Shown: positions 11,390 through 52,600, counted from the stretch's first letter. The stretch: DNA of 64,000 bases from Armatimonadota bacterium (GCA_942492855.1 OW818647.1:1017864-1081863), one strand, 5' to 3'. Translations and numbers: made by a program. Notes: generated by a model from the sequence alone, not told the origin.

Positions 11390-11399
11390 GTCTGCCAGC

Positions 11400-12391: not shown

Positions 12392-12509
12392 GCTCTTTCA
12401 GTAGTAGCAAGCTATCATCGAGTACAGCATCAATCCGATCAATGATCATGTACACGGTCTCGTTGCGTACAACTTCACATAGTTCTGTGTAGGTAGCAGG
12501 TGTTTCCAT
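12357..12509 (-). CDS. Phage hypothetical protein (about 50 aa)
   Basis: AAGGAG RBS then ATG at 12509 (METPATY...). Confidence 0.5.
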   Translation of the reverse strand: METPATYTELCEVVRNETVYMIIDRIDAVLDDSLLLLKELVNALRDDHDR

Positions 12510-12519
12510 TGCAGTCTCC

Positions 12520-12774: not shown

Positions 12775-13148
12775 TGATTACCTTCTTTAATGGTTTTTAT
12801 TCGGCTTCAAATATTAATTCAAAATAGACAACAATGGAAACGTGCATTATGCCCCAATATCCTAAGATAAGACAGTAAATATACCTGTTTTTAGAAATTG
12901 GTAAAAAATAAGTGAGATTGTCTGTTACTGAGTAGGATAACAGTCGAGAAAGTGTACCATTTGCGAAATGTCTGCATATGATAATAGTAGATGCCCAACT
13001 AACAGGTGGTATGTACTATTCTTTGAAATAGGCGGGAGGCAGAAAACTAAATAGAGTGTGTGTTCCCCATTAAAGCTGTCTCTGGCTCCATTGTGTGATT
13101 CTGCGCTCCCTACCTGGTTCTTGTTCGCTGGGTAGGGATTATTCTTAG

Positions 13149-13184
13149 AAAACAGGAAACCCCACTGCCGTAAGCAAAGGGGTT
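13149..13184 (-). terminator. Probable terminator of the 14232-13249 gene trio
   Basis: Minus strand AACCCC-TTTGC-TTAC-GGCAGT-GGGGTT followed by TCCTGTTTT. Confidence 0.55.
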
Positions 13185-13248
13185 ATTGGGATAGCGATTC
13201 CTGACACCACAAGGCCCATACAGAGCATTGTTTGTATTACTGGAGTAT

Positions 13249-13506
13249 TTATGAAGGGTTATTTAGTAGATAGTCTTCCGTAATCTTCTTGACTTGTGCT
13301 GCTGTTAGCCCCTTCTCTTGAACAAAGGTTTCGAAGATTCTTCTCGATACTTCAAGATGTGGGTAATCAACTTCACTTATGGGGACGTTCGATAATATGG
13401 TATGCGGTACCAATTGAAGAATAGTCTCATAGTTGGCCTTATCCACTTCGTCTTTTATCCTAGTGATGTATGCATAATCTTTTTCTACGTAGTCATAGTT
13501 CGGCAT
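13249..13506 (-). CDS. Phage hypothetical protein
   Basis: 85 aa, separated from the upstream ORF by 1 nt. Confidence 0.65.
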   Translation of the reverse strand: MPNYDYVEKDYAYITRIKDEVDKANYETILQLVPHTILSNVPISEVDYPHLEVSRRIFETFVQEKGLTAAQVKKITEDYLLNNPS

Positions 13507-13507
13507 A

Positions 13508-13870
13508 CTATTTCACTACCACCCTGTGATGACGAACCGCATCTATTAGGTCGGCAGCATCTTCGAAGGCATGACCTTCAAAAACCTCAAGTTGTGTAGC
13601 TATTACCAAATAGGTATATAGAACCATATTATCACTTGCTACTCTATCAACTAATTCCATTAGTTCTCCAGCAGTATATGTACCTTGAGTTGTAACCGCT
13701 GTATGCAGTTTCTTATGTCGGGACAATACTGCAGCTTTTGTTGCAGCTTCATCTAATATATCTAAAGCCTCCACACGAAGCTTTGCCATTTCTTCAACAG
13801 CAGTTGGGGAATCGCCATCTTTAAAACTGTTCAAAGATGCTGGAACGTCTATTGCTATACCACTAAACAC
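13508..13870 (-). CDS. Phage hypothetical protein
   Basis: 120 aa, stop/start overlap with the upstream ORF. Confidence 0.7.
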   Translation of the reverse strand: MFSGIAIDVPASLNSFKDGDSPTAVEEMAKLRVEALDILDEAATKAAVLSRHKKLHTAVTTQGTYTAGELMELVDRVASDNMVLYTYLVIATQLEVFEGHAFEDAADLIDAVRHHRVVVK

Positions 13871-14232
13871 TATTTACCTACCTTGAACCTATAGTCCTTG
13901 GGAAACACTCTGCCATTAGCTATTTTTAGTACGTCATCTGCTGTAGTGGTGATGGGATCCTGGCCCATAAACCAACTGACTTCAGTGGCAATATTTATAT
14001 AGTGCCTAATAAGCAATACGCAGCTGCTGGCTATTGATAGTTGATTCCATAGCTCCTCAGTGTTGGCACCTATAAAATCCAATCCAACATCCGCATTAGC
14101 CATATCTTCGATTAACTCAAGGGATGAAAGCTCATTCTCTAAATCTACCCAGATTCTTCCTAAAGCCTCCATACGTAGCTCGTTCATCGGAGCGTCGTTC
14201 TTTAAAGGAACGAATGTGACACCTTGCAACAT
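13870..14232 (-). CDS. Phage hypothetical protein
   Basis: 120 aa; AAGGAG RBS upstream. Confidence 0.7.
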   Translation of the reverse strand: MLQGVTFVPLKNDAPMNELRMEALGRIWVDLENELSSLELIEDMANADVGLDFIGANTEELWNQLSIASSCVLLIRHYINIATEVSWFMGQDPITTTADDVLKIANGRVFPKDYRFKVGK

Positions 14233-14577
14233 CGCTTATATCTCCTTAAGTAGTGGTAACGGTAAAAGCATACCGTACATGTGCCAGTGTTGCAAGGGCA
14301 TCCCATCTGACCGTTGTTGTTCTTTTTCAGCAGGCGAAGCGTAGCTTCGGCGGAGGTACCGGTACCATCGACCGCTGCTTGGTATCCGCTCCCCACAGCT
14401 TGCTGTGCCTGCTGAACCCTTCGCCCAACCATATGAGGATCAAGACCCCAAGGAGCGGAGCGACGTTGAAGTTATTAATTATCTCAAAACATTAATATCT
14501 TAGTTATTTACGACTGTTAGTATCCTACCGGTACATATGGAAGTAAGGTAAAAAGTGAGCGTAGCGAACGAGATATT

Positions 14578-14810
14578 ACTATAGAGAGAGACTTGTCTCT
14601 ATAGTATATATCAAGTGAGCGTGCCTAATTACAAACTGTAATACAACACATACTCTAAGGGGATTTTATTACATTACAGTGTTAGAACACTTGAAATCTC
14701 TGTAATGCAACACATACTCTAAGCCCTCTTTTTTACATTACAGTTTTAACCAAGGTGTTCAGCAACTGTAATGTAGCACACTCCCTAAGTGGCAAATATT
14801 ACATTACGAG
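14578..14810. repeat. Putative phage replication origin: palindrome plus three 44-46-bp inverted-repeat units
   Basis: ACTATAGAGA/TCTCTATAGT palindrome (14578-14605) and units CTGTAATRYAR-N22-TTACATTACRR at 14636, 14700 and 14766; gene-free AT-rich region directly upstream of the replication ATPase. Confidence 0.75.
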
Positions 14811-14942
14811 TCAATTTGTACCGAAATTGAATCTGCTGCATATAATAGAGTGTAATATCGCTCTATATGATATTTCAATTACTGAATATTTACAGTGAAT
14901 TCGAATTAATTAATGTAAGACCAATTTAACGGAGGTTACCAG

Positions 14943-16043
14943 ATGTCAGTAGTAGCAGATTTCCTTAACGAGTACCACAAGTATCTAGACGGTGATGTAG
15001 CAAAAGATGAGATGTTGGGTAAGTGGCAGAACTTGACACCAGACCATCAGAAGCTAGTAAAGCGAGCAGTAGAAACATCGAGTAAGTTCAACCTGTCCTA
15101 TTTCCTACAAGACACCCTATGCCCATCCAACTCTGAGGGACAGATAGTACTATCCAGTGCTATCTTAGCTGATGATGAAGTGATAGATGTTGAACTCCCA
15201 CTGCTGGGACGAACAGGAAGCAATCTATTGTTTGAAGGAAGAGCAGCAATTATAGTTGCCGGAGCAAAGACAGGCAAGTCAATGCTAATGCTTCACTCTT
15301 TCAAACACTGGGAAGGTAAAGAGATCAAGATCTACACCGAAGAGAAGCGACCCACTTGGAACAGACGACTACACAAACTGCAGGATGCTGGAATTGTATT
15401 GGATAACCTGAAGATTGTCTATGATCAGAACGTAGGCTTCAGTGAAGTGCTGACAGGCATCTACAATACCGAGAGAAACGGAATAGTAATACTCGACACT
15501 CTCAGACGATACGGAAACTACACAGATGAGAATGACGCAATACAGGCACAGGCGGGTGTAGTACCTCTGATCGAAGCTGCAGAAGATGCCGGTGTCACAT
15601 TGATTGCCCTGCACCACAGCAACAAGACGTCATCCGAATACGGTAACCGTAGTGCTGTTTATGCAAGTGCCGGATCAACTGCCATCACAGCTAAGTTCGA
15701 TTCGATAATCCAAATCAAGAAGTGCGGTGACAAGTTAGTTATCGATGGAGACGTAAGGGATTACAAAGCCAGTAAGCTTGAAGCCAAGTGGATTGACAAC
15801 TTGCTTACTGCTATTGATCCACATGTGAACCCAGAAACTGGTAAAGAATTTACGCTTCCTGAAAAGATACTCAACCTGTTAAGAGAGGAACCAGGACTAA
15901 CGAGAAACGAGATATATGAAAAACTACAGGCAGGTTCACAAGAATCGATCAGAGTTGAAGTAAGCAACCTCAAGGGTAAAGGGAAGCTCATAGAAACTGG
16001 TTCGAGAGCCACAGCCACATATTCATTGCCGGAGGAAAACTAG
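14943..16043 (+). CDS. AAA/RecA-like replication ATPase/helicase (RepA/AAA_25-like) with C-terminal winged HTH
   Basis: Walker A AGAKTGKS, Walker B VILDTL, LIALHH.NK and AGSTAI motifs; C-terminal GLTRNEIYEKL...VSNLKGKGKL wHTH; GGAGG RBS. Confidence 0.85.
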   Translation: MSVVADFLNEYHKYLDGDVAKDEMLGKWQNLTPDHQKLVKRAVETSSKFNLSYFLQDTLCPSNSEGQIVLSSAILADDEVIDVELPLLGRTGSNLLFEGRAAIIVAGAKTGKSMLMLHSFKHWEGKEIKIYTEEKRPTWNRRLHKLQDAGIVLDNLKIVYDQNVGFSEVLTGIYNTERNGIVILDTLRRYGNYTDENDAIQAQAGVVPLIEAAEDAGVTLIALHHSNKTSSEYGNRSAVYASAGSTAITAKFDSIIQIKKCGDKLVIDGDVRDYKASKLEAKWIDNLLTAIDPHVNPETGKEFTLPEKILNLLREEPGLTRNEIYEKLQAGSQESIRVEVSNLKGKGKLIETGSRATATYSLPEEN

Positions 16044-16343
16044 ATGTCCAGACTTATATATCCTACCGAATATCCAAAACAAGTAACTATCGAGCTATTC
16101 ATCCCGTACCATAATGAGATAGTCAATGTCCCCGCTACGATGGAGAATGGGACAGTGTATGTCAGGAAAGACGTGATGCACGCAGCCAAGATATCACAGT
16201 GTGATCCAGACTGTATAGGACCTGATAAGTGCAAGGGTTGTAGCTACTACATGCACATGGTAGATGGAGCAGACCATAAGTTAGTCGATGATGGTAAATA
16301 CTACAAACTCGTGTTCCTGCCAGACCTATTTGGTGATTACTAG
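16044..16343 (+). CDS. Phage hypothetical protein with a Cys cluster
   Basis: 99 aa coupled to the ATPase; CDPDCIGPDKCKGC. Confidence 0.65.
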   Translation: MSRLIYPTEYPKQVTIELFIPYHNEIVNVPATMENGTVYVRKDVMHAAKISQCDPDCIGPDKCKGCSYYMHMVDGADHKLVDDGKYYKLVFLPDLFGDY

Positions 16344-16447
16344 ATGAAATACACCATCCACAAGAACGGAAAGCCAGGCACACTACACGCGCCAACCGAC
16401 TGCTGCGTAGAGCGCACAGAAAATAGAAAAACTTCAGGGAGAAAGTA

Positions 16448-16651
16448 ATGCACACAATATATTCAGTTATGGACCAGAACAGCACCTTCACAGATGACGA
16501 AGGCAACATAATGATGGAGTGTTTTTTCCATTCAAAAGAGGAAGCAATAGCTTATATGTCAGAGCACAACATAGCCAGTGAGATCGAAGAGACTGAATGT
16601 ATAACCAGTGACGAGTATTGGGCAGAGCGAAGGAAAACCAGTGAGGATTGA
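16448..16651 (+). CDS. Phage hypothetical protein
   Basis: 67-aa acidic ORF with upstream GGGAG. Confidence 0.55.
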   Translation: MHTIYSVMDQNSTFTDDEGNIMMECFFHSKEEAIAYMSEHNIASEIEETECITSDEYWAERRKTSED

Positions 16652-16718
16652 TAGAGACCTGCCACAGGGCACAGTCATGATACCAGCCAGGTTTGGGAGG
16701 TGAAACATCAAGCACAAC

Positions 16719-17120
16719 ATGTGTTATACCACTGAGTACCATTCTTGGAGAGCAATGAAACAACGGTGTCTGTGTCCCACCAACGGGAACTACCCAAACT
16801 ATGGAGGACGTGGCATCGGCGTAGACGATGACTGGAAAGGCAGTTTCGAGAAGTTCATAGACGACATGGGACCTAAGCCAGCACCCGATTACTCCATCGA
16901 CCGCATTGATGTCAATGGCGACTACTGCAAAGATAACTGTAAATGGGCATCGATAAAGGAACAGTCAACTAACCGTCGTAACACGATCCGTGTAGACATC
17001 AATGGCGAAGCACTCACACTGCCAGAGATCGCAGAACGCACAGGCATTAACATCAAGACCATCCAGAAACGCTACTACAGCGGCAAACGGGACGATGATC
17101 TGATCAAGCCTGTCAAGTAG
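16719..17120 (+). CDS. HNH endonuclease lacking the N-terminal zinc module
   Basis: EYHSWRAMKQRC, NYGGRGI and SIDRIDVNGDYCKDNCKW motifs; in-frame TGA at 16701. Confidence 0.8.
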   Translation: MCYTTEYHSWRAMKQRCLCPTNGNYPNYGGRGIGVDDDWKGSFEKFIDDMGPKPAPDYSIDRIDVNGDYCKDNCKWASIKEQSTNRRNTIRVDINGEALTLPEIAERTGINIKTIQKRYYSGKRDDDLIKPVK

Positions 17121-17121
17121 G

Positions 17122-17156
17122 AAAACCCCTGTGTTTAGTATGCTCAGGGGTTTTTT
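17122..17156. terminator. Bidirectional terminator between convergent HNH and integrase genes
   Basis: AAAACCCCTG-N13-CAGGGGTTTTTT. Confidence 0.85.
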
Positions 17157-18046
17157 CATCTCTTTAAGCGGTGTGTCCAGCTCACTGTTTCGTGAACCTG
17201 CTGCAGTACCTCAGGCCGTATGCCAAGGTATTTCTGGGTGGTTGCAAGGGAAGCGTGACCCAACAGTTGACGTACCACTTCAAGGTTCGCTCCGCTTTCC
17301 ACCCATGCTGTCGCAGCTGCACGCCTTAGCATATGTGGTGAGATGTGTATGTGAGCCATCTTACACCGCCTCTGGAACATCAACCTAATAGCGTTGCTAG
17401 TCATCGGGTCATCATATCGGTCAACGAACAGAGAGTTGCTGTGATCAGGCCTAGACGCCATATAACGGATCAGCATCATCCTGGTTTTTGATGTGATGAA
17501 CACATATCTGTCACGCCTACCCTTTGTCTCATGAAGCACGATATTCCCTTCGATGGCATCACGTGTCAATCCAACCAACTCACCCATCCTGCAGCCTGTA
17601 TCAAGCAGGAACAGGATGATTGCCCGGTCACGCAAGTCAAGCAGTTCTTTCCCGCACGTGTTTAGAAGCTCAAGTATGGTTTTGTCAGTAGGGGGTGACT
17701 TCTGTTCGCTGTCCACCTTAGGGGGCCTTAGCTTTGCAAGCGGTGGCGCAGGCACAAGCTCTTGATTGTATACCCAGTTCGAAAAGGCCTTGAGTGTCCT
17801 GTATATGGCATGTACCGAGATCGGCTTGATTCCACGTTCAGTGGCTGCGATCAGCAAGCGGTTTGCCACGAGTAGCGTCATATCGCCAATGGTTGGTGCC
17901 ACCTCAGGGAGGTTTCGCAGGTTTTCCTGGTAGAACTCAAGTGTCCTTGGTCGCAGTCCCCTAGCTCGACAATCCTGTAGAAAGTAGGTTATAATATCTG
18001 AGGTCACAAGGGCTTTCTGATTCGTATGAATCAGGAGCTCGTCCAT
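17156..18046 (-). CDS. int: Tyrosine recombinase/integrase (XerC/D-like, no arm-binding domain)
   Basis: RDRAII.FLLDTGCRMGEL, ETKG, HMLRR, LLGH and TTQKY catalytic motifs; 296 aa. Confidence 0.95.
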   Translation of the reverse strand: MDELLIHTNQKALVTSDIITYFLQDCRARGLRPRTLEFYQENLRNLPEVAPTIGDMTLLVANRLLIAATERGIKPISVHAIYRTLKAFSNWVYNQELVPAPPLAKLRPPKVDSEQKSPPTDKTILELLNTCGKELLDLRDRAIILFLLDTGCRMGELVGLTRDAIEGNIVLHETKGRRDRYVFITSKTRMMLIRYMASRPDHSNSLFVDRYDDPMTSNAIRLMFQRRCKMAHIHISPHMLRRAAATAWVESGANLEVVRQLLGHASLATTQKYLGIRPEVLQQVHETVSWTHRLKR

Positions 18047-18110
18047 TTCGGATTCGTCCCTTCAAAAGCGATAAGTGGTCGTTTTTACTGCTCATTTATC
18101 CAATCATCGC

Positions 18111-18188
18111 GGCGGCTATAGCTCAGTTGGTTAGAGCGCCTGACTGTGGCTCAGGAGGTCGTGGGTTCAAATCCCATTAGCCGCCCCA
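18111..18188 (+). tRNA. tRNA-His (GUG)
   Basis: Acceptor GCGGCTA/TAGCCGC, anticodon arm CCTGA-CTGTGGC-TCAGG, GGTTCAAATCC T-arm, G-1 and C73 identity pair, encoded CCA. Confidence 0.97.
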
Positions 18189-28559: not shown

Positions 28560-28569
28560 TGGCGTATCC

Positions 28570-28900
28570 CTATCCACAGATGACGCAGATTACGCAGATT
28601 AGGTAATTGACCGGCCCGGTTTTCCCTTTCCGGGCCGGTCTTTCGGGAAGCTCCGATCCAAAGTACGAGGCCACCGAAATACGGGCTATCCGCCAGCCTT
28701 TTGTCTGAACCACGGATTACGCGGATGGCGCAAGAAGGGCGGTTCGCGAACCGCCCCTACGGACCAGACCGCGCCGGAGATGGGCTGCATGGCGGTCGTG
28801 AGTGTACCGAGAAACCGGCGCGGTCCATTCCCTGATCTGCGTCATCAGTGTAATCTGTGGATATACATCATCTCCTCCGCGCCTTACGCGTCTCCGTGAG
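28570..28900. repeat. REP mosaic (reverse-orientation copy of modules of the 359-bp unit)
   Basis: GACCGCGCCGG...CCGGCGCGGTC hairpin, 9-mer repeats and a GTAG REP. Confidence 0.8.
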
Positions 28901-28968: not shown

Positions 28969-31461
28969 GTGAAATCCCTTAGTTTGAACGGCGAATGGCA
29001 GATTCGTGGAATAGATGGTCAGCACGGCTACACAGGTCAGTATGTGGGGATCGAGTGTGACACGCGCTACCATTTCCCAGCCACCGTGCCCGGCGAGGTT
29101 CACATGGACCTGATGCGCGCGGGACTCATCCAGGACCCCAACCACGGGCTCAACTCTCTCAGTGCGCGCTGGGTGGAGGAGCATGTATGGGTCTACCGCA
29201 AGAGCTTCACCGCTCCGAAAGAGGCACTCTCTGGACGCAGTTTTCTGGAGTTCGAGCGGCTTGATCTGATAGCTGACGTCTACTTGAATGGGCACAAGCT
29301 AGGACAGCACACCAACAGCTTTTACCCTTGCCGCGTAGAGGTGACGGGGATTTTGCTAGAGGGTGAGAACCTGCTGGCGGTGTCACTGGATGCCGGGCTT
29401 TACCACACCAGTGAGAAGCCGGGAGCCGCCTACACAGGCTGGTTTGACCATCAGTTGCACAAACGTGCCTGGCTGCGCAAGCCTCAAAACCAGTTCAGTT
29501 GGGACTGGCATCCACGCCTGATCAATGTGGGCATCACCAAGGGCGTCTCGCTGGAGTATGGTGCCGATGCGCGAATCGACAGCATCAGCCTGACCCCCAA
29601 GCTTTCTGGAGACCACACTTCAGCGTCCCTGCTGGCGGACGTGCGTGTGGAGAATCTGAACGCCACCCCCACCCAGGTGGAGCTGAGTGTGGCGTGCGGG
29701 GAGCATCGCATCGCGCTGACGCAGGAGTGTCAGCCCGGCATGAACACGCTAAAGCTGGAGCTGGAGGTCGGCCAACCGAAACTCTGGTGGCCCAAGGGCT
29801 ATGGCGAGCAGCCGTTATATGATGTGGGGTTCGAGCTGAAGGGCACCGACGGGCAACTAGTCGAAACACAAAGCCGCCGAACGGCGATCCGCAGCGTGGA
29901 GCTTGAGCAGACCGTTCATCCCGTGGAAGGTAACTACTTCGTGGTCCTAATCAACGGAGTGCGAGTGTTCCTGAAGGGCGGCAACTGGGTTCCGCCAGAT
30001 ATGATCTTTGCGAACATTGATGCGGGCCGGTATCGCCGACTGGTAGAGCTGGCCGTGGAGTCAAACTGCAACGCGCTGCGCGTTTGGGGCGGCGGTCTGT
30101 ATACCGAGAACGAGTTCCTGGACGCCTGCGATGAGCTGGGCGTGGTGATCTGGCACGACTTCATCTTCGCATGCTGCCAGTATCCGGCCGATGACCAGAC
30201 CTGGCTGCAGGATGTGCAGCGCGAGGTGGATTTCGTGACGCGGCATATCTCGCACCACCCGTCGCTGTGCGTCTGGTGCGGCAACAACGAGCTGGAGTGG
30301 GGGTTCTGGGACTGGGGTTTCCCCGGCATGAAGGTGCATCCCGACCACAGCCTGTATCACATCCATATTCCGCGGATTGTGAAGCAGAACGACCCCTCAC
30401 GCCCCTATTGGCCCAGCTCGCCGTATAGCACAGACTGCCGGCATCCGCAGGACCCGCATACGGGCGACCAGCACCCGTGGGGTGTGAGCCTGCAGGTGGA
30501 TGAGACGAACTTCTATGCCTACCGCACCTACACCGACCGCTTCCCTAACGAAGGCGGTGTGTTGGGCTGTAGCAATTTGGCCACGCTGAAGCAGTTCCTA
30601 CCGGAGGGTCAACAGCACGTGGGCTCCCCCAGTTGGGAGCATCACGACAACGCGACCAACTACTGGCGAAATCCTCTCTCTGAGGCGATGCTGAAGGACT
30701 GGTTGGGTAAAAGCGGAAGCCAGTTTGAGCTGGAGGAGTATGTCTACGCCAGTGCTATGCTGCAGGCTGAAGGTCTGAGCGAGTACGCCGCGAACTACCG
30801 CCGGCGGAAGTGGGACAGCAGTTGCGCCATCTTTTGGATGTACAACGACAGTTGGCCCACCACCCACGGATGGACCATCGTGGACTATTATGAGCGCCGC
30901 AAGCCCAGTTTCTACGCCATGAAGCGCGCGTTCGCGGATATCACGGTCATCTGCGTCTCCGAGGAGCGCAGCATCAAAATCTACGGCGTGAATGACACTC
31001 AGCAACCGTTCGATGGTCAGTTGTGGTGCGGACTGTTTGGTCTGGACGGCTCCATGCCGGGTGACAACAAGCTGGATGTCCACATCCCCGCCAACAGCAG
31101 CGTGGAACTGGCTGAAATGCCCAGCCTGCTGCTTCGCGAGCAGGGCATTGAAAAAACCGGCGTGTTCGCACAGTTGTGGGATGGTGCCCACATGGTGGGG
31201 CAGCACCGGCTGTTCCTGGGACGGTTCAAGGAGATGAGCTTCACAGTTCCTAAGGTCAAGATCGACTGGCTGGATGACCACGCCATATTCCTGGCCGATG
31301 GCTTCGTGTGGGGCGTGTGCATCGATGAGCTGGGCGAGGAGAGCCTGCCGGACAACTACTTCGATCTGCTTCCCCATGTGGAATACCGCATACCCTGGCC
31401 GGAGTCGCATCCGCTGCCGAAGGTGCTGCGCATCGGCAACCGGCTGTGTGAGCAGGGGTAG
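28969..31461 (+). CDS. GH2 beta-mannosidase-like glycoside hydrolase
   Basis: WDWHPRL, LWWPKGYGEQPLY, GGNWVP, RVWGGG, WHDFIFAC, WCGNNE, GDQHPW and FWMYND motifs; GGAGG RBS with GTG start. Confidence 0.92.
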   Translation: MKSLSLNGEWQIRGIDGQHGYTGQYVGIECDTRYHFPATVPGEVHMDLMRAGLIQDPNHGLNSLSARWVEEHVWVYRKSFTAPKEALSGRSFLEFERLDLIADVYLNGHKLGQHTNSFYPCRVEVTGILLEGENLLAVSLDAGLYHTSEKPGAAYTGWFDHQLHKRAWLRKPQNQFSWDWHPRLINVGITKGVSLEYGADARIDSISLTPKLSGDHTSASLLADVRVENLNATPTQVELSVACGEHRIALTQECQPGMNTLKLELEVGQPKLWWPKGYGEQPLYDVGFELKGTDGQLVETQSRRTAIRSVELEQTVHPVEGNYFVVLINGVRVFLKGGNWVPPDMIFANIDAGRYRRLVELAVESNCNALRVWGGGLYTENEFLDACDELGVVIWHDFIFACCQYPADDQTWLQDVQREVDFVTRHISHHPSLCVWCGNNELEWGFWDWGFPGMKVHPDHSLYHIHIPRIVKQNDPSRPYWPSSPYSTDCRHPQDPHTGDQHPWGVSLQVDETNFYAYRTYTDRFPNEGGVLGCSNLATLKQFLPEGQQHVGSPSWEHHDNATNYWRNPLSEAMLKDWLGKSGSQFELEEYVYASAMLQAEGLSEYAANYRRRKWDSSCAIFWMYNDSWPTTHGWTIVDYYERRKPSFYAMKRAFADITVICVSEERSIKIYGVNDTQQPFDGQLWCGLFGLDGSMPGDNKLDVHIPANSSVELAEMPSLLLREQGIEKTGVFAQLWDGAHMVGQHRLFLGRFKEMSFTVPKVKIDWLDDHAIFLADGFVWGVCIDELGEESLPDNYFDLLPHVEYRIPWPESHPLPKVLRIGNRLCEQG

Positions 31462-31559: not shown

Positions 31560-32849
31560 TTACTCGAGCTTCGCGCCTTCCACGATCCGGCTGTAACCGC
31601 CCAGGAAGGGGCGCAGCGGCTCGGGGATCAGGATGCTGCCGTCGGCCTGCTGGTAGTTCTCCATGATGGCGATCATCACACGGGGCAGAGCCAGACCTGA
31701 GCCGTTCAGCGTATGCAGATACTCGGGTTTGGCACCCGCTTCCGCACGGTAACGGATGTTCGCACGCCGGGCCTGGAACTCCATGAAGTTGCTGCAACTG
31801 CTGACTTCCAGCCACTCCGCGCAGCCAGCCGCCCACAGCTCCACATCGTATTTCATTGCCGCGGTGAAGCTCAGGTCACCAGTACACATCTGCAGCAGTC
31901 GGTAGGGCAGGCCAAGCACTTTTGCGACATCAATCGCGTCGTTCACCAGCTTGTCAAGCTCCTCCACACTCGTTTCGGGTGTGACCAGTTTCACCATCTC
32001 CACCTTGTCAAACTGGTGGCCGCGCTTGATGCCGCGCACATCGCGCCCCGCCGACATCTTTTCGCGGCGGAAGCAGGCGGTGTAAGCCACATACTTCACC
32101 GGCAGCTCAGAGGCGTCAAGGATCTCGTCGCGGTGGAAGTTCGTCACCGGCACCTCAGCGGTCGGCACCCACCAGAGGTCTTCCTCGGCGTCGTGGTATA
32201 GGTTATCGCCGAACTTCGGCAGATTGCCCGTGCCCACCAGCGCCTCCTGCTTGACCATGTAAGGTGGGTAAAGCTCCGTGTAGCCGTGCTGAGTGGTGTG
32301 CAGGGTGAGCATGAAGTTGATGACCGCGCGCTGGAGGGCCGCCCCAGCGCCGCGCAGCACGTAGAACCGCGATCCGCTGATCTTCACACCGCGCTCGAAG
32401 TCGATGATGCCCAGCTTCTCCGCCAGTTCCCAGTGGGGTATCGGCGTGAAGTCGAACTGTGGCAGCTCTTGCTGCTGGAAGGTCACCACATTCTCGGTGT
32501 CGTCCTTGCCGATCGGCACAGAGGGGTGCGGAAGGTTCGGCACGCGCAGCATCTGCTCGTCAAAACTCTGAGCGATACTCATCAGCTCCGCCTCGAGGGC
32601 CGACACCTTGTCACCCACCTCGCGCATGGCGGCGATTTTAGCCTTCTTTTCCTCTGGCTCCTTGATGCGGGGAATCTCTTTGCTGACCGTGTTGCGTTCC
32701 GCGCGCAGCACGTCGATCTCGGTCATCAGCTCTCGGCGTTTGACATCGATGCTGATGAGGTTGTCCACCATCGCGGGGTCTTCGCCCAGCGCACTCAGCC
32801 CCTGCTTTACAAGGTTTGGATTTTCACGGATCAAGCGGATATCAAGCAT
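31560..32849 (-). CDS. serS: Serine-tRNA ligase
   Basis: MLDIRLIREN start with GGGAG RBS; PTAEVP, CFRREKMSAGRDVRGIKRGHQFDKVE, EVSSCSN and HTLNGSGLA class-II motifs. Confidence 0.98.
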   Translation of the reverse strand: MLDIRLIRENPNLVKQGLSALGEDPAMVDNLISIDVKRRELMTEIDVLRAERNTVSKEIPRIKEPEEKKAKIAAMREVGDKVSALEAELMSIAQSFDEQMLRVPNLPHPSVPIGKDDTENVVTFQQQELPQFDFTPIPHWELAEKLGIIDFERGVKISGSRFYVLRGAGAALQRAVINFMLTLHTTQHGYTELYPPYMVKQEALVGTGNLPKFGDNLYHDAEEDLWWVPTAEVPVTNFHRDEILDASELPVKYVAYTACFRREKMSAGRDVRGIKRGHQFDKVEMVKLVTPETSVEELDKLVNDAIDVAKVLGLPYRLLQMCTGDLSFTAAMKYDVELWAAGCAEWLEVSSCSNFMEFQARRANIRYRAEAGAKPEYLHTLNGSGLALPRVMIAIMENYQQADGSILIPEPLRPFLGGYSRIVEGAKLE

Positions 32850-32924
32850 GGCGACACTCCCAGTGTGGTGTTTTGTTCTATGATAGTAGTATATCATTCT
32901 GCGGGAAGCTGGGCGTGAGAACCC

Positions 32925-34204
32925 GTCTCACGCGAAGACGCGAAGGTATGGCCGCGCCGGTCTTTTCCCTGGGCAGGCAGCTATTGGCACGAAGGGGAGA
33001 ATCATCCACAGATTACTCAGATTACTCAGATTACACAGATTACACAGATTAGTTAGTGGACCGCGCCGGTTTCTCGGTATGCTTCCGACCGCTATGCAGC
33101 CCGCCTCCGGCGCGGTCTGGCGGATAGCCCTCCCTCTCCATCCGAGCCCATCCGTGTAATCCGCGTAATCCGTGGTTCAGACGAATGTCCGGCGCGGTCT
33201 GGCAAGTAGGGGCGATCGGCGATCGCCCTCCCCGCCCCGGGTTTAGTCACCCCACGGGACTGGCGTCCCTAAGGGGTTCCTGCACCGCACGGCTGATCAT
33301 TAGCGGCCGGTGTCGCTTCGCTCCGACCGGCGCAGGAGAAGCGCCGCATTCCGATTGCCTATGTCCCGGTTGGAGAATTCATCCACAGAAGGTACCAAAA
33401 GCGCCGATTAGGTAATAGACCGCGCCGGTTTCTCGGTACGCTTCCGACTGTTTTGCAGCCCGTCTCCGGCGCGGTCTGGCGGATAGCCCTCCCTCTCCAT
33501 CCGAACCTATCCGTGTAATCCGCGTAATCCGTGGTTCAGACGAATGTCCGGCGCGGTCTGGCAAGTAGGGGCGATCGGCGATCGCCCTCCCCGCCCCGGG
33601 TTTGGTCACCCCACGGGACTGGCGTCCCTAAGGGGTTCCTGCACCGCACGGCTGATCATTAGCGGCCGGTGTCGCTTCGCTCCGACCGGCGCAGGAGAAG
33701 CGCCGCATTCCGATTACCTATGTCCCGGTTGGAGAATTCATCCACAGAAGGTACCAAAAGCGCCGATTAGGTAATAGACCGCGCCGGTTTCTCGGTACGC
33801 TTCCGACCGCTATGCAGCCCGTCTCCGGCGCGGTCTGGCGGATAGCCCTCCCTCTCCATCCGATCTCATCCGTGTAATCCGCGTAATCCGTGGTTCAGAC
33901 GAATGTCCGGCGCGGGTTGGCCCATATCGAAGCCGGTCAGCCACGCTGCCGCGGGTTTAGTCACCCCACGGGACTGGCGTCCCTAAGGGGTTCCTGAACC
34001 GCACGGCTGATCATTAGCGGCCGGTGTCGCTTCGCTCCGACCGGCGCAGGGGAGGTGCCGCATCCCGATTTGCCGATGTCCGGCGTAGCAGAATTCATCC
34101 ACAGATGGCCCAGATGACACCGATTAGGTAATAGACCGCGCCGGTTTCTCGGTACGCTTCCGACTGTTTTGCAGCCCGTCTCCGGCGCGGTCTGGCGGAT
34201 AGCC
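32925..34204. repeat. Tandem array of about 359-bp REP-mosaic units (3 full + 1 partial) with a head module
   Basis: Unit start GACCGCGCCGGTTTCTCGGTA at 33059, 33418, 33777 and 34134; head TCTCACGCGAAGACGCGAAGG at about 32925; GATTAC(T/A)CA 9-mers at 33011-33051. Confidence 0.95.
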
Positions 34205-34222
34205 AAACTGTTTTCGAACCTC

Positions 34223-34723
34223 TTACGTAAGCTTATCAAGCCGACGACGGAACTCCGCGATCAATGGATCAGCCTTGAATCGTGATCTGTCGCATATACT
34301 CTGAGCTGCGGCCAAAGCATCGGCGGATGTAAGCTGACCCACCTCAACCAACTCGATCAGAATCTCTAGCCCCCATCTAGCATCAATACCATCAGAAATG
34401 GCCGCGTTAAGCAGTGCTCGATCATTAGTGTATAGTGTTCCTTTACAGTCTCGAGCATAAATCAGGCAAATCCTGTCACGAAATGACAATCCCCCACGCC
34501 GGGTGACGGCCTCTACCACAACCTGAATATCGGGCTCAACAACGCTTAACGCAAATCGTTCAATGGACATATCGTCAAGCTGATTGACTTCTTGTAAGAT
34601 CGGCGATAGTATGACGATCTTTCCGAGCGATGATGCGGCAAGACCGAGAAGACAAGGGTCTTCCAGACATATGTCGATCAGAACGCATGCATCGAGTATG
34701 AGCAAACGATCAGCCGCGACCAA
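34223..34723 (-). CDS. PIN-domain-like protein (putative ribonuclease toxin)
   Basis: N-terminal LLILDACVLID, then LSFRD..CL and LYTNDRAL acidic motifs; 1 nt downstream of the peptidase gene. Confidence 0.75.
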   Translation of the reverse strand: MVAADRLLILDACVLIDICLEDPCLLGLAASSLGKIVILSPILQEVNQLDDMSIERFALSVVEPDIQVVVEAVTRRGGLSFRDRICLIYARDCKGTLYTNDRALLNAAISDGIDARWGLEILIELVEVGQLTSADALAAAQSICDRSRFKADPLIAEFRRRLDKLT

Positions 34724-34724
34724 G

Positions 34725-35843
34725 TTAGGCTACCCAGTCCTGCATTCGTTCAATCATCTCTTCAGGTGTAATCCGCAGTATCTCGGCTGCCCTATCGCGC
34801 GTGATCAGTTCCGAATCAATGGCTTGCCTCACTAGCCTGCTAAGTCGATCTTCTACGAAATCCACACTGTCCAGCCGTTTCGGCTCTTGAGATGCCCTGT
34901 TTTCGACCACCTTGAACGCCTCTGGAGTGAGTGGGATCGGCTCATCTTTGCGACTCAAGGAGTGCCCATATCGTCGCTGGTATTGAGAATGGAAGGACTC
35001 CCAGACACGGGGGTACCCCTTCTGCTGAAGCCGATAGAGCACGGTCGCATAGCTCACCCGAAGCATCCTTTTGATTTTGAACACTCGGTCTAGTAAGGGC
35101 TGACCTCGGGTTTCTTCCCATTCCTTATCGAAAATCAGCTCTGGCATCAGGAAATGAGCTGCGAACCTGTTTGCTTCGTCTTCCTCGTTTTGTTCTTCAT
35201 CCTGTCGGTTGGGATCGAAAGAATCAATATGCATCAGTATGTGCCCGAGTTCGTGCGCCGCGCTGAATATCCATCGTTCCACCGGGATTCGATCCCAGGT
35301 ATTGACCACAATGGCCGGTCCGCCGTCAGATGCACCGATAGACAGCCCAAAGAAATACTCGGAATTCACCGCTCGGGGGAAGACCTTCGTGCCGGATTTC
35401 TCGAGCAATCCACATATATCGCGGATTGGCTCAGAGGAAATCCCCAACTCCTGACGAACATCAACAGCTAGTAGCTCAGGACTATCTGCCGTAAGATGAC
35501 AGAGTTTCCAGCCCTCACTACTGCCTGTAAGCTCTTCAAGACCGATATAGTCGTCCAGCCAACCTGCCGCGTCGATCAGGATTTGCTCTCGTGTGTTGAG
35601 CTTGTTGCTCGCCCTGAACCTGACCGCAGTCAAACTTCTAGGAATGGTTGCGAGGTCGGCTATGCCCACTCCTAGCTGGCTGGCGATGGACATGAGCGTA
35701 TTGATCTTTGGCATCGCCTTACCTGACTCGTAGTTACGGAGACTTGCTACGCTGATTTTAGCCAGGTCTGCCACATGCTCTTGTGTAAAGCCTCTGGTGA
35801 GGCGCAGCCTTCTGATGTTGTTACCAATGGTATTGTGTTCCAT
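34725..35843 (-). CDS. XRE-HTH fused to ImmA/IrrE (M78, COG2856) zinc metallopeptidase
   Basis: IGNNIRRLR...TQEHVADLAKISVASLRNYESGK HTH; RWIFSAAHELGHILMH HExxH motif; EDEANRFAAHFLMP. Confidence 0.92.
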   Translation of the reverse strand: MEHNTIGNNIRRLRLTRGFTQEHVADLAKISVASLRNYESGKAMPKINTLMSIASQLGVGIADLATIPRSLTAVRFRASNKLNTREQILIDAAGWLDDYIGLEELTGSSEGWKLCHLTADSPELLAVDVRQELGISSEPIRDICGLLEKSGTKVFPRAVNSEYFFGLSIGASDGGPAIVVNTWDRIPVERWIFSAAHELGHILMHIDSFDPNRQDEEQNEEDEANRFAAHFLMPELIFDKEWEETRGQPLLDRVFKIKRMLRVSYATVLYRLQQKGYPRVWESFHSQYQRRYGHSLSRKDEPIPLTPEAFKVVENRASQEPKRLDSVDFVEDRLSRLVRQAIDSELITRDRAAEILRITPEEMIERMQDWVA

Positions 35844-35865
35844 TTCGACCCTCCACTACATCCCT

Positions 35866-35893
35866 ATTATGGCATAATCATCAGAATTTGCAA
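35866..35893 (-). promoter_or_regulatory. Sigma70-like promoter of the HTH-peptidase/PIN operon
   Basis: Minus strand TTGCAA-N16-CATAAT with TG extension; adjacent AATAC-N5-GTATT palindrome is a possible operator. Confidence 0.5.
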
Positions 35894-35972
35894 ATACTAA
35901 TGGTATTAACATAATTTGATAATACAGCTATTATAAAGCGGGTAATGTCGAGGCACAGCCACTGTGGGCTCT

Positions 35973-36551
35973 GTCTCACGCGAAGACGCGAAGGTATGGC
36001 CGCAGCGGTCTTTCTCCCTTGCAGACAGTTATTGGCCCAAGGGGAGAATCATCCACAGATTACACAGATGGCGCAGATTAGGTAGTGGGCCGCGCCGGTT
36101 TCTCGGTACGCTTCCGACCGCTATGCAGCCCGTCTCCGGCGCGGTCTGGCGGATAGCCCTCCCTTCCCATCCGAACCCATCCGTACCATCCGCGTAATCC
36201 ATGGTTCAGACGAATGTCCGGCGCGGTCTGGCATGTAGGGGCGATCGGCGATCGCCCTCTCCGCCGCGGGTTTAGTCACCCACACGGCTGATCAATAGCG
36301 GCCGGTGTCGCTTCGCTCCGACCGGCACAGGGGAAGCGCCGCATTCCGATTACCTATGTCCCGGTTGGAGAATTCATCCACAGAAGGTACCAAAAGCGCC
36401 GATTAGGTAATAGACCGCGCCGGTTTCTCGGTACACCTCCGACCGCAATGCAGCCCGTCTCCGGCGCGGTCTGGCGGATAGCCCTCCCTCTCCATCCGAG
36501 CCCATCCGTGCCATCCGCGTAATCCGTGGTTCAGACGAATGTCCGGCGCGG
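35973..36551. repeat. Second REP-mosaic array (head + 1 full shortened unit + 1 partial)
   Basis: Same head as at 32925; unit starts at 36088 and 36413 (period 325, lacking the GGGACTGGCGTCCC hairpin). Confidence 0.92.
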
Positions 36552-36569
36552 ATCGATACGCCTTCCGCC

Positions 36570-36598
36570 TTGACATCGCTAGTTGTAAAGGGTATTGT
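36570..36598 (+). promoter_or_regulatory. Sigma70 promoter
   Basis: TTGACA-N17-TATTGT, 77 nt before the ATG at 36676. Confidence 0.7.
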
Positions 36599-36675
36599 AA
36601 CTCAGAGAAGAACACGATATTTGTGTTCGCTGACCTATTTACTGGAAAGACACACCCAATTGTGAGGTCACACGC

Positions 36676-37296
36676 ATGATCACTGCCGGAATACGCCGCA
36701 ACCAGGACCGCTGGCATACGCTGAAACTGAGCTGCATCGCCAGAATCGCCAAAACGGACGGCGCGTTAGGCAACACCATCCTGGCCTGCCTGCTGATCAT
36801 GCTAGCGGACATCATCTGTATGATCGTGACCGAGTCATACCTGCTCTGTGTGGCCGTCAACACGCTGATGGTGGTGGTATGGGGATCAGCCCGGCGCGCT
36901 CATTACCAAGTCGTGCTGCCTACAGCGCTCGTAGCCGCCAGTTTGGCCTTGGTTACGCGTTTGTTTATCGACGGCTTTTTCATGTGCTTCGTCATTTGGA
37001 CAGCAAACTTGATGATTGCACTGCGGCCTGAGCTGTTTCGGCGTTGGCGATATAATAAAGCATTATTAGCTGTTCTATCGGTGATCTCATGTGTGATTAT
37101 CATCGTGCTTCTACCAATTCTGCCGAAGGACATGATATTTAATAACAAACACAACATCATTCCTGACTGGGTGTCGTTTACCATCTTTGGGTATTTCACT
37201 ATGGTTACTGGTAAGCAAATACATGACAGGGTACATGGTCATGATGATGAGGAGGCAGAGGAAGCCGATAGCAGGAGCCTCCCCAACAACGCCTAG
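36676..37296 (+). CDS. Hypothetical membrane protein
   Basis: Five to six hydrophobic segments and an acidic tail; true start may be downstream. Confidence 0.7.
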   Translation: MITAGIRRNQDRWHTLKLSCIARIAKTDGALGNTILACLLIMLADIICMIVTESYLLCVAVNTLMVVVWGSARRAHYQVVLPTALVAASLALVTRLFIDGFFMCFVIWTANLMIALRPELFRRWRYNKALLAVLSVISCVIIIVLLPILPKDMIFNNKHNIIPDWVSFTIFGYFTMVTGKQIHDRVHGHDDEEAEEADSRSLPNNA

Positions 37297-37321
37297 CCAT
37301 GGCTTAACGAACATGCCAAAT

Positions 37322-37350
37322 CCCCTCCCTTCGCAGCGCGAAGGGAGGGG
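37322..37350. terminator. Hairpin between convergent genes
   Basis: CCCCTCCCTTCGC-AGC-GCGAAGGGAGGGG, 13-bp perfect stem. Confidence 0.7.
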
Positions 37351-37356
37351 GTTTCG

Positions 37357-38415
<1,059 letters not shown>

Positions 38416-38490
38416 CGAATCATGACCTCCAAAATCGGCACATCTGGGGCACGGCACGCTGGGGCACGGCACGCCATGCCCCTACTATCG

Positions 38491-39549
38491 TTATCTAACC
38501 CAGATCATCTCTTTGCTGGGCAGAACAGGGAACACGCCATGTGGCTCCGACTGGTACCACAGTGCCAGCGAGCTGATGTCGTCGCGCAGGGGCTGGAAGT
38601 GCCCCTCCTGCCACCAGCCAAGCGCCTGCATGGTCACCTTGAGGTCTTGCTTGAACCGGATGGGGTCCATGATGTGCCAGCGATAAAGGTCAAACGCGGC
38701 CGGCTTGGTCTCCACTCTGCGCGCCATGGGCATGCCCAGGAAAGGGGTGTTATACGGTTCTTCCTTGCCCTTGCTGTCATAGAAGCACCAGGCTCCGCCG
38801 AAGTAGTCCTCAGTGCCTGTTCCGCAGATGGTGGGGTATTTCCCGTCGCCGTCCATGAAGAACTTGATCTCGCCCTCGCCCCACCAACCGCAACTGAAGC
38901 TCATCCAGCTCAGGAAGGTGCCCACGTAGTGGCCCTGTCCCTTCACGCCGTCAAGTATCACGTGCTCTGGGCAGTCCATGGGGGTCACGCTGCGTCGCCA
39001 CTGTGCGTGAAGGTAGGCCGCCTCAGCGGGTACCTCCTGCAGTGCGTAGCTGATCTGGTAGAAGAAACCGCCGATGTCCTTGCCCCATGTGTTTTCGATG
39101 GTCATACGGCAATTTTTGCGAAATGGCATGGGCCAGTAGCTGTTAAATCCGCCGCTTGGGTTGACCGCGATGGGCATGGAGACCACGTTGTGGCGGTCAC
39201 CCTGTCCGTGGCAGAAGAAGTCACCCAGAGGGCACTCAACAGAAGGGGTCTCTTCCCCGTCCCAATACATGCGCAGGATGCACGTTCGGTAGGCAATGGG
39301 GTCTACCGTGATCCAGATGTGCTGGATCAGGCCTGGGCCATCAATCTCAGCCAGCGTCACGGTTTCGCCAGAAGCGACCGTAATACAGGGGCGGACTTTC
39401 CAGCCCTCGCCTAAAAATTCGCTGCACTCACCCGGTTTGGGTGCGACTCTAGCTCCGCCCCCTTTTGCTCCATTGGGGTTCTCGGCGTTGATACTACGGG
39501 TCTCCGCGCTGCTGAGTAGTGCAATGTTGGATAGACTGCTGATAAACAC
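38491..39549 (-). CDS. DUF2961 / GH172-family glycoside hydrolase, copy 1
   Basis: Same motifs, 352 aa, AGGAGG RBS and GTG start. Confidence 0.9.
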   Translation of the reverse strand: MFISSLSNIALLSSAETRSINAENPNGAKGGGARVAPKPGECSEFLGEGWKVRPCITVASGETVTLAEIDGPGLIQHIWITVDPIAYRTCILRMYWDGEETPSVECPLGDFFCHGQGDRHNVVSMPIAVNPSGGFNSYWPMPFRKNCRMTIENTWGKDIGGFFYQISYALQEVPAEAAYLHAQWRRSVTPMDCPEHVILDGVKGQGHYVGTFLSWMSFSCGWWGEGEIKFFMDGDGKYPTICGTGTEDYFGGAWCFYDSKGKEEPYNTPFLGMPMARRVETKPAAFDLYRWHIMDPIRFKQDLKVTMQALGWWQEGHFQPLRDDISSLALWYQSEPHGVFPVLPSKEMIWVR

Positions 39550-42806: not shown

Positions 42807-42982
42807 ATCGATGGGATGACATGCGCTCCGCGCTGTTGGATCGACTGTCGATTAACAAAGTGAACGTGGCCTCCTATGAGGAAACTAGTCGGATTCTTTT
42901 CATTTATTACACAAATCCAAGCGGATGGGTGAAGAGGCGATGTGGGTTAATTGTTGGGGTAGAGGTGAAGATTCGTCTGAAC

Positions 42983-43140
42983 CACGGATTACACGGATTA
43001 CACGGATTACACGGATGGAGAGGGAGGCCAATCAGGCGATTGGCGTTCCCAGGTGGGCGGTTCTCGAACCGCCCAGGGCGACCGCCGGTCGCCCCTACCG
43101 GCGCGGTCATTACCCAATCTGTGAAATCTGTGCCATCTGT
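42983..43140. repeat. REP mosaic with 9-mer tandem CACGGATTA x3.8
   Basis: CACGGATTA at 42983, 42992, 43001 and partial at 43010; GGGCGACCGCCGGTCGCCCCTAC REP. Confidence 0.85.
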
Positions 43141-43159
43141 GGATTGGTTCCCATCAACG

Positions 43160-52089: not shown

Positions 52090-52600
52090 GGATACCATCG
52101 ATAAGGGCTTGCTGTAGTTTGGCAAGCCCTCTTTTTATGCATGGTTGCGGGGCGGGCATCGGACGGATGGGACGGATAGGACCGATCACGATTGGTCTGG
52201 GCTTCCGCCATGAGGGCGATTCGCGAATCGCCCCTACACACGGAACCTCCGCGCCGGTTTTCCAGAAGCAACGCGGTGTGGTTCCGTCCCCCTGGGAACG
52301 CCAATCGCCTGATTGGCATCTCCCTTCCCATCCGTTCCTATCCGCGTCATCCGTGTAATCCGTGGTTCAGACAATCCGGGCAAACACGGGAGCTGTGTGG
52401 CGTTCGCTAGAAGGGCGGTTCGCGAACCGCCCCTACACGGCCCGCGTTCCGGCGCCGGCCGGAGCGAAGCGACGCCGGCCGCTATTGATCAGCCGTGCGG
52501 TGCAGGAACCCGCACTGGACGCAGTTCCCGGAGCGTACGCTCCCGGAATGTAGTCGTGTGGGTGACTAAATCCGCGGCACAGCGGCTGATCACCAGCGAT
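52090..52600. repeat. REP mosaic cluster
   Basis: REP palindromes at 52213 and 52411, ATCCGTGTAATCCGTGGTTCAGAC module, GCCGGC..CGAAGCGAC..GCCGGC module. Confidence 0.8.

Follow-up and report, generated by a model that had tools for sequence, protein, structure and literature searches.

Two tandem repeat arrays around a predicted Rosmer-type toxin–antitoxin pair beside serS in an Armatimonadota bacterium: a probable BIME-like repeat nest

Why are two genes of foreign composition enclosed between two arrays of the same long, hairpin-rich repeat? The question is raised by a locus in a 64,000-nucleotide stretch of DNA from an Armatimonadota bacterium (GCA_942492855.1 OW818647.1:1017864-1081863), referred to here as the window. 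Between serS and a gene for a membrane protein, a predicted toxin–antitoxin (TA) or defence pair, composed of an RmrA-like antitoxin and a PIN-fold toxin candidate, has array 1 on its serS side and array 2 on the other. The explanation that is probably correct is that the arrays are part of a nest of repetitive extragenic palindromes (REPs) and miniature inverted-repeat transposable elements (MITEs), similar to bacterial interspersed mosaic elements (BIMEs), that was expanded locally around a vertically inherited TA module of the Rosmer type, a module that repeat-associated deletion can remove.

Array 1 consists of a head, starting at 32924, and about 3.2-3.3 units of 359 bp that run to 34204. 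Tandem Repeats Finder (TRF) reported a period of 359, 3.2 copies, 92% matches and 0 indels for 33047-34204. Array 2 (35955-36551) has the same head followed by a 325-bp unit and a 151-nt partial unit, and a repeat search located the array-1 unit again at 36076-36551, where the unit starts are 325 apart. Both arrays are in direct orientation, their head cores start at 32924 and 35972, 3048 bp apart, and the two heads are 90% identical over 101 nt. Both also follow the form (element+spacer)n+element, each closing with a partial unit. The units (U1a to U1d in array 1, U2a and U2b in array 2; Table 1) are mosaics of modules, named A to F. The deletion in U2a removes exactly the 34 nt of hairpin D (CCCCACGGGACTGGCGTCCCTAAGGGG), and U1d is 100% identical to U1b across 83 nt. 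U1b is a young duplicate, while U1c is the old resident unit, its C'-D-E being orthologous to one relative (L175) and its variant tail F' to another (L005). Array 2 stops 18 nt short of the -35 box of the next gene. The GC content of the arrays is 62%, compared with 50.3% for the enclosed 1767 bp (34205-35971) and 59-61% for the neighbouring genes. Repeated 76-aa open reading frames within the units were considered as genes and rejected as by-products of the repeat. An earlier, sequence-only reading of this DNA had described same-headed direct arrays around the two genes with heads 3048 bp apart, and this was borne out by TRF, the repeat search and alignments; it was also right about the AT-richer enclosed segment, the unit without a 34-nt hairpin (U2a) and the unit with a variant tail (U1c). 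It had given array 1 a head and 3.4 near-identical multi-hairpin units. The head and the mosaic structure stand, but the count is slightly too high, and not all units are near-identical, their likeness ranging over 90-97%.

Module A is a 59-nt hairpin with a perfect 11-bp stem (-29 kcal/mol, z-score about -3.4 to -3.8), whose loop alleles alternate among the units; the whole unit folded as single-stranded DNA has a z-score of -2.4. Module B is built of 9-mers of the ATCCG type and ends with GTAATCCGTGGTTCAGAC, the reverse complement of the CACGGATTA repeats. These repeats are related to the CACAGATTA microsatellite of the head and are also found, in 3.8 copies, at 42983-43016. Module C has GTAG followed by GGGCGATCG/CGATCGCCC and is a classical GTAG-tagged REP; the GTAG-tagged palindrome that defines a REP, here GTAGGGGCGATCGGCGATCGCCC with a 9-bp stem, is present in U1a, U1b and U2a. 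Module D is a hairpin, module E a weaker one, and module F is a tail ending GAATTCATCCACAGA..GATTAGGTAAT. Copies of modules A, B, C and E, alone or recombined and in either orientation, are also scattered over 4 further gaps between genes of the window (about 28570-28870, 42970-43150, 52200-52600 and 60400-60700), and module D is found in the window in these arrays only. Related palindromes with GTAG lie at 26508, 28752, 43090, 52229 and 52428, and GTAGGGGCG occurs 9 times in the window where 0.4 are expected, with 8 of the 9 sites intergenic. That the mosaics contain REPs, as had been proposed, is supported by the palindrome in the units and by this excess. Some of the dispersed copies are MITE-like, with inverted ends of the ATCCACAGATTA type (28572-28866, 42971-43145). 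The 4 other repeat loci of the window carry neither arrays nor cargo, and no further composite of head and unit was found within the 64 kb.

Outside the window, the head core (CTCACGCGAAGRCGCGAAGG) is found as an exact 20-mer in at least 119 stretches from many phyla, archaea included, and the head body has extra copies in L175 at 2802-2882, 3015-3094 and 14473-14564. The head as a cassette-specific, att-like site was rejected on these grounds. The B motif was found as single dispersed copies in 46 metagenome contigs, none of them from close relatives. When 185k species genomes, a set from which the window's own genome is absent, were scanned for two hairpin-A anchors ~359 bp apart, there were 0 matches, and a metagenome scan for the array-type A module also gave 0. 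Nothing relevant was found in Rfam at the gathering threshold and E<=1, and the arrays have no terminator-like T-runs. Among the matches to the head, a composite of head and ATCCACAGATTA like that of the window was observed in only 6 of 140. It occurs in another phylum, in Oligosphaera ethanolica (L063, 2372-2700), where the head core lies ~17 nt upstream of TTATCCACAGATTACGCAGATTAGCGCAGATT and the ~127-bp unit forms a tandem array of its own. Methanoculleus (L052) and another Armatimonadota sequence (L030) have the core as well. The motif TTATCCACA is presumably the DnaA-box consensus.

The age of the arrays relative to the gene pair can be judged from relatives. The pair is present at the same serS site in four of them, L001/L002 (a metagenome-assembled genome, MAG, GCA_054606775.1, and a Logan contig), L004 and L005, with a nucleotide identity of 81-90% to the window (89.6%, 80.8% and 85.3%, respectively). 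The divergence of the module tracks that of serS, which is 93-94% identical to the window in L001 (93%) and L175, and 84% in L004. In L001/L002 the flank from the PIN gene to serS measures ~140 bp and the one upstream of RmrA ~230 bp, and these flanks hold short non-tandem pieces of the window's repeat families in a structure unlike that of the window. L004 has a 417-bp non-tandem mosaic that starts with the same head beside serS; the head core adjoins serS in L175 as well. L005 matches the window's array end exactly (F', hairpin A, GGCGGATAGCC|AAACTG), and its contig breaks exactly at the start of the repeat. The core of head 2 is found at the same position in L001 and L005, and the head 2 body is specific to the window. 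Because the flanks in L001 and L004 are non-tandem and the gene pair diverges together with serS, the arrays are younger than the residence of the gene pair and unnecessary for it. Units U1a, U1b and U2a are 94-97% alike, whereas orthologous DNA between the genomes is 86-93% identical, so the expansion and the copying between the flanks would be recent. Between close relatives, the repeats flanking the module have been entirely replaced. A comparison of the serS locus across strains, which the sequence-only reading had suggested, has thus found the module kept with repeats beside it, but in L001 and L004 these are not tandem. In L001, 39-nt direct repeats of the B type (8676-8714 and 10533-10571; 90% identity, 1857 bp apart) bracket the module. 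Repeats of the same orientation on both sides seem to be a recurrent feature of the locus.

Could the tandem copies or array 2 simply be misassembled? Tandem repeats are error-prone in assembly. However, the usual mark of an artefact is a collapsed repeat or an exact copy, and here the units show differences of 3-10% and of entire modules. An artefact is unlikely because of these differences, because the source contig is 5.3 Mb long and because the independent L005 assembly has the same junction of array and PIN gene, with its break at the repeat start; the chance of it is put at almost nothing. Misassembly was one of two outcomes that the sequence-only reading had named as fatal to its account.

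One relative, L175, provides an empty site. It is a ~5.2-Mb Armatimonadota chromosome without the RmrA-PIN module and is a sister of L001. Their flanking genes are 92-93% identical, compared with 86-87% to the window, and they have the synteny downstream of serS in common. The order in L175 is serS, the head, some hairpins, C'-D-E of U1c and, last, the conserved promoter that belongs to the next gene, and L175 8591-8736 is 93% identical to window 33918-34066. The joint, ...gctgCATCCC|actaacgt..., consists of the window's left flank up to CATCCC and the L001 right flank from CATCCC onward, with both breakpoints inside repeat mosaics. By parsimony, L175 lost ~2.2-2.5 kb secondarily between 6-nt direct repeats in the mosaics, a segment that would have held the tail, hairpin A, PIN, RmrA, head 2 and adjoining repeats. 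Since the module is missing in L175 and both breakpoints are in mosaics, the cargo does undergo repeat-associated deletion, or at the least such a deletion is plausible. Alternatively, the CATCCC could be the duplicated target of an old insertion, which requires that L175 is misplaced in the tree or was converted. Campbell-type integration at the head was rejected, as L175 has the ancestral C'-D-E on the serS side of the module position, so that the arrangement is more than a plain head, module, head. A DDE transposon corresponding to the 2.5-kb segment bounded by CATCCC was also rejected, there being no inverted repeats at its ends.

It had been proposed that the locus is an active cassette platform, in which a HUH transposase of the kind of the REP-associated tyrosine transposases (RAYTs), or recombination between the arrays, captures and amplifies cargo and excises it as a ~3-kb circle, with empty units as the scars. 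Several observations agree with this proposal. Direct repeats of ~480-600 bp with 90-95% identity bracket cargo that looks foreign, each unit includes a GTAG REP, a known type of RAYT substrate (PMC2817692), the RmrA-PIN pair has been mobile on deeper timescales, and in L175 the module was lost with breakpoints in the mosaics. However, the same cargo stays at the same site in four relatives, whether arrays are present or not, and no alternative cargo was seen at the serS site in any relative. The deletion claimed for the cargo has one natural case, but its joint is the 6-nt repeat, outside the 359-bp homology of the arrays. No HUH, RAYT or integrase gene was found at this site, either in the window or in the Pfam tables precomputed for the relatives, and there are no footprints at the locus of the kind that empty units would leave, and no other array in the 64 kb between which further cargo could lie. 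The negative scans for tandem units and the lack of arrays and cargo at the other repeat loci of the window also speak against a platform, which is therefore considered improbable. A related suggestion, also given little credence, is that an enzyme-driven process, either rolling circle of the RAYT type or a transposase that reads the CACAGATTA/CATCC-type 9-mers, makes the module excisable and re-insertable. If true, the pair of CATCCC sites would be a target duplication or excision site, the locus would be a population on/off switch for a costly defence pair and excision at short repeats would be a new way to switch defence genes on and off. The composite of head and ATCCACAGATTA, arrayed also in Oligosphaera, would then mark a widespread undescribed mobile repeat system.

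The BIME-like nest accounts for the arrays in several steps. The intergenic region between serS and the membrane-protein gene would be an old nest of GTAG REPs, GC-rich hairpins and MITE-like pieces with CACAGATTA/CACGGATTA ends, and the two-gene operon would have been acquired horizontally and have already been resident in this nest by the time the known relatives diverged. In the lineage of the window the left flank would have expanded, the seed being direct copies, ~359 bp apart, of an element of ~120-190 nt made up of the tail and hairpin A, with or without B. The form (element+spacer)n+element points to unequal crossing-over or replication slippage between such copies as the origin of array 1. 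Array 2 may then have arisen when ectopic recombination or gene conversion placed a copy of a block of head and unit in the right flank; array 1 is its most likely source, since the spacer modules of array 2 belong natively to the left flank. Whole modules would afterwards have been swapped or dropped. The REP in place of C', the precise loss of D and the alternating loop alleles of hairpin A suggest continuing conversion or replacement. It has been proposed that a REP transposase has a role in BIMEs (PMC2817692), and one may contribute here as well. The division between old and young parts is consistent with this sequence of events. The resident part, U1c and U1d, is common to L175 and L005, while U1a, U1b and array 2 beyond the head core are window-specific and 94-97% alike, compared with a divergence of 7-14% between genomes.

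Two independent insertions of a composite mobile element, consisting of head, MITE and spacer, followed by local tandem duplication, would make the flanking of the TA pair a coincidence. The modules are indeed dispersed and in part have inverted 9-mer ends like those of MITEs, copies of the head body exist elsewhere in L175 and intergenic repeats turn over completely between close relatives. What such insertions fail to explain is that the D-E spacer is native to this locus in L175 and that D is found nowhere else in the window. Array 2 has the same E-F spacer, with 94.5% identity to U1a, which fits copying from the neighbouring array better, and the 64 kb hold no further head+unit composite. 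The sequence-only reading had regarded two insertions as the simpler alternative; they fit poorly and are thought to be rather unlikely.

Several points weigh against a locally expanded, BIME-like nest. The composite search covers the 64-kb window, and if 359-bp arrays or head+unit composites exist elsewhere, array 2 may have been inserted independently. C and F are carried by the young units, C' and F' by the resident unit, so simple duplication is insufficient and extra conversion or replacement has to be assumed. Each 359-bp unit has a single canonical REP, all in one orientation, unlike classical BIMEs, and no RAYT was noticed among the window's open reading frames (a systematic scan was not made) or in the relatives' Pfam tables. 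The polarity of the L175 event, loss rather than gain, is based on parsimony over few genes. Finally, the relatives are short-read MAGs or contigs, which could mis-resolve repeats; the flanks of L001 and L004 are structurally different from those of the window and are not collapsed versions of them.

The enclosed genes are compositionally foreign, with a GC content at third codon positions of 0.46 and 0.57 compared with 0.73-0.80 for the neighbours. The RmrA-like protein matches HTH_3 (5.7e-12) and Peptidase_M78 (1.1e-15) in Pfam, RmrA models of PADLOC down to 1e-33 and the spr1629 antitoxin family of NCBIfam at 1.7e-26, which is under that model's curated cut-off. Look-ups by exact protein for RmrA and the serS product of the window found no record of either. 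The partner has no match in Pfam. Its AlphaFold2 model has a pLDDT of 91.9, and the top Foldseek matches are PIN domains (3ix7, 2mdt, 1o4w, 1v8o), VapC and HARP RNase P, at a probability of 1.00 and TM-scores of 0.43-0.56; profile matches to the PDB are weak (3ix7 at 0.011). Among 17 homologues, all from Armatimonadota-like sources, D17, E45, D83 and D101 are invariant and D11 nearly so, and 12 of the 17 family members have weak matches to PF01850, the best at 7.8e-6. No RmrT model of PADLOC matched the toxin candidate, which is a divergent PIN family outside current models. The two genes are thus predicted to form a TA or defence pair of the Rosmer type, with a helix-turn-helix (HTH)-M78 antitoxin and a PIN-fold toxin; the RmrA match, the HExxH motif and the fold of the partner are consistent with the TA or defence module that had been suggested earlier. 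HTH-COG2856 fusions in operons with PIN toxins have been predicted before (PMC2701414, PMC5499597), and RosmerTA is the present name of this architecture (bioRxiv 10.1101/2022.05.11.491447; PMC10440598). The palindrome upstream of RmrA, whose TATTATGGCATAATCATCAGA core is kept in L001 and L005, is probably the RmrA operator and promoter. From what is known of the family, the HTH domain would repress this palindromic promoter and the antitoxin would restrain the PIN RNase until a trigger arrives.

The co-oriented pair with its 1-nt gap is kept in L001, L003, L004, L005, L171, L173 and L174. Its other contexts include sites beside gidAB, beside groESL, in an 8.2-Mb genome and beside the BREX genes pglY/pglZ, and flanking repeat arrays were found in none of five such contexts. 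One more context, P0027, is a short contig with a different arrangement and is uninformative. In L174 (4881-12501) a distant pair, with a PIN identity of 40%, lies immediately upstream of BREX brxC/pglY and pglZ, and this defence-island context supports a putative anti-phage role of the family. In L003 (OW818698.1) a 160-nt copy of the RmrA 3' end, 93% identical, occurs 1.65 kb downstream (9831-9990 and 11479-11638), and between the two copies are the PIN gene and a gene of 210 aa on the opposite strand. This duplication looks like a trace left when toxin cassettes were exchanged through recombination in the 3' end of the antitoxin gene.

Do the arrays have a function for the genes beside them? 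They could be a structured-RNA array that is processed by, or antagonises, the PIN RNase as in type III TA systems, or a 3' untranslated region (3'UTR) or insulator that shields serS. Array 1 is in the 3' region of the RmrA-PIN operon and upstream of serS in the same orientation, there are strong hairpins on both strands, and the ~200-nt array end is ~95% identical between the window and L005, compared with ~85% for the coding module. According to a preprint (bioRxiv 10.64898/2026.03.23.713779), REPs serve as 3'UTR elements in E. coli. However, RmrA-PIN is intact in L001 and L004 without arrays and in the five other contexts without such repeats, the modules are generic dispersed repeats, and there are neither Rfam matches nor T-runs. 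A function of this kind is therefore held to be very improbable. If the locus is a BIME-like nest, the arrays are by-products of repeat dynamics, like clusters of the BIME-2 type, and are unneeded for the TA module to work. Their main consequence would be structural instability: the repeats expanded in the window and contracted in one relative, and another relative lost the module altogether.

How do the arrays and the gene pair compare with known systems? REP clusters that are tandemly reiterated together with flanking DNA, and BIMEs that vary between strains, are known (PMC3733652, PMC2817692). The BIME-2, atypical BIME and tandem REP clusters of E. coli, Stenotrophomonas, Pseudomonas and Xanthomonas are, like the arrays, extragenic mosaics of GTAG palindromes with basic modules head to tail and flanking DNA swept into the unit, and they show extreme length polymorphism among close relatives, the modules also occurring singly or otherwise combined. 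The unit in the window is far longer (359 bp, 5-6 modules), has one REP in a single orientation instead of alternating Y/Z pairs, and includes several modules from other repeat families with 9-mer ends. The arrays work like a BIME cluster but are not a canonical BIME. REPINs and MITEs (PMC3116915, PMC3184786) are likewise short, non-coding and dispersed intergenically in both orientations, with inverted ends such as ATCCACAGATTA.../...TAATCCGTGG enclosing hairpins; the pieces in the window have imperfect ends and are concatenated one way as a tandem array. Neither target-site duplications nor a transposase could be established for the MITE-like pieces of the window.

Among TA systems, RosmerTA (RmrT/RmrA) and the HTH-COG2856 (DUF955/M78) plus PIN "three-component" systems of Makarova 2009 (PMC2701414) and Matelska 2017 (PMC5499597) share with the enclosed pair an Xre-HTH/HExxH M78 gene immediately upstream of a small toxin gene, a PIN-like partner, a patchy distribution and, in one relative, a BREX neighbour. 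The pair differs in that its toxin candidate lies outside the RmrT models and under the Pfam PIN threshold. Type III systems (ToxIN) also have tandem structured repeats adjoining an RNase-type toxin gene. Their unit is about 36 nt compared with 359 bp, and here one array lies downstream of the toxin and there is a protein antitoxin. A type III system, in which the array always accompanies the toxin, was rejected, as the toxin is found without such arrays in L001, L004, L003, L171, L173 and L174. Integrons and gene-cassette platforms have foreign cargo bracketed by direct, hairpin-forming repeats as well. The repeats at serS are generic and dispersed and the single stable cargo has its own promoter and operator, unlike in integrons. 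An integron-like platform was rejected, since the only integrase in the window is that of a prophage and the single cargo is the same in all relatives that carry it.

The anchors of the locus and the features described above are collected in Table 1. The promoter region of serS is conserved to about 32907. On the right, the conserved promoter is fused straight to the 206-aa membrane-protein gene in the window. In L001 (5563-8456) and L175 (8797-11638), genes of 209, 140 and 306 aa lie around the 206-aa gene, and the window (36552-37356) is without them; these absences are further lineage-specific deletions at an unstable locus. Downstream of serS (28969-31461) the window has an 830-aa GH2 gene, whereas both relatives have a non-orthologous 1162-aa GH2+malectin gene (L001 12173-15661, L175 3266-6754), and the synteny break beside the window's gene falls exactly at the repeat cluster 28565-28900. 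Two tandem paralogous GH172/DUF2961 genes (37357-39549; 371 and 352 aa, ~80% nucleotide identity) are kept as a pair in the relatives. The window also has an AT-rich (45.9% GC) prophage-like block (1-18188) that abuts tRNA-His (18112-18188). Its minus-strand genes include those for the integrase (17156-18046), a large terminase (8026-9282), a major head protein (4437-5402) and a multi-HTH regulator (10172-11440).

Table 1. Features of the serS locus, in window coordinates.
Feature	Position	Strand	Description
serS, seryl-tRNA synthetase	31560..32849	-	429 aa from MLDIRL start; Pfam tRNA-synt_2b, Seryl_tRNA_N
Head 1	32924..33046	+	core CGTCTCACGCGAAGACGCGAAGG at 32924-32946, ~65-nt body, then GAGAATCATCCACAGATTA
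CACAGATTA x5 microsatellite	33007..33051	+	head/unit junction (TRF); expanded form of the ATCCACAGATTA terminal motif
U1a	33047..33405	+	359 bp; modules A-B-C-D-E-F; tail F ends ATCCACAGA...
U1b	33406..33764	+	359 bp; 96.7% identical to U1a
U1c	33765..34121	+	357 bp; ~90% identical to U1a/U1b; variant C' in place of REP hairpin, variant tail F'
CATCCC	34061..34066	+	left breakpoint of segment absent in L175; matching CATCCC in L001 right flank
U1d	34122..34204	+	partial; tail and hairpin A only; ends GGCGGATAGCC where unique DNA starts
PIN-fold toxin candidate	34223..34723	-	166 aa; TTG start 1 nt past RmrA stop
RmrA-like antitoxin/regulator	34725..35843	-	372 aa; N-terminal Xre HTH and M78/ImmA-IrrE zinc peptidase, HELGH
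AT-rich palindrome	35866..35915		overlaps minus-strand promoter-like site TTTGCA-17-CATAAT
Head 2	35955..36075	+	core at 35972-35994; 90% identical to head 1
U2a	36076..36400	+	325 bp; 94.5% identical to U1a; lacks 34-nt hairpin D
U2b	36401..36551	+	partial; modules A and B plus 12 nt
Promoter TTGACA-17-TATTGT	36570..36598	+	conserved in L001 and L175
Membrane-protein gene	36676..37296	+	206 aa; right-hand anchor of locus (36570-37296 with promoter)

Clusters of this type and TA systems of this type are themselves known; what is unusual here is the long multi-module unit, the Armatimonadota host and the toxin family outside current models. Armatimonadota are not among the phyla given for GTAG repeats in PMC3733652, and the locus extends clusters of GTAG REPs of the BIME-like kind to this phylum. 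The range of toxins paired with antitoxins of the RmrA type is widened as well, by a divergent PIN family. The orthologous intergenic nest in close relatives is a natural series of expansion, contraction, copying between flanks and loss of a TA module, and the locus illustrates how mosaics of REPs and MITEs destabilise accessory genes without dedicated cassette machinery.

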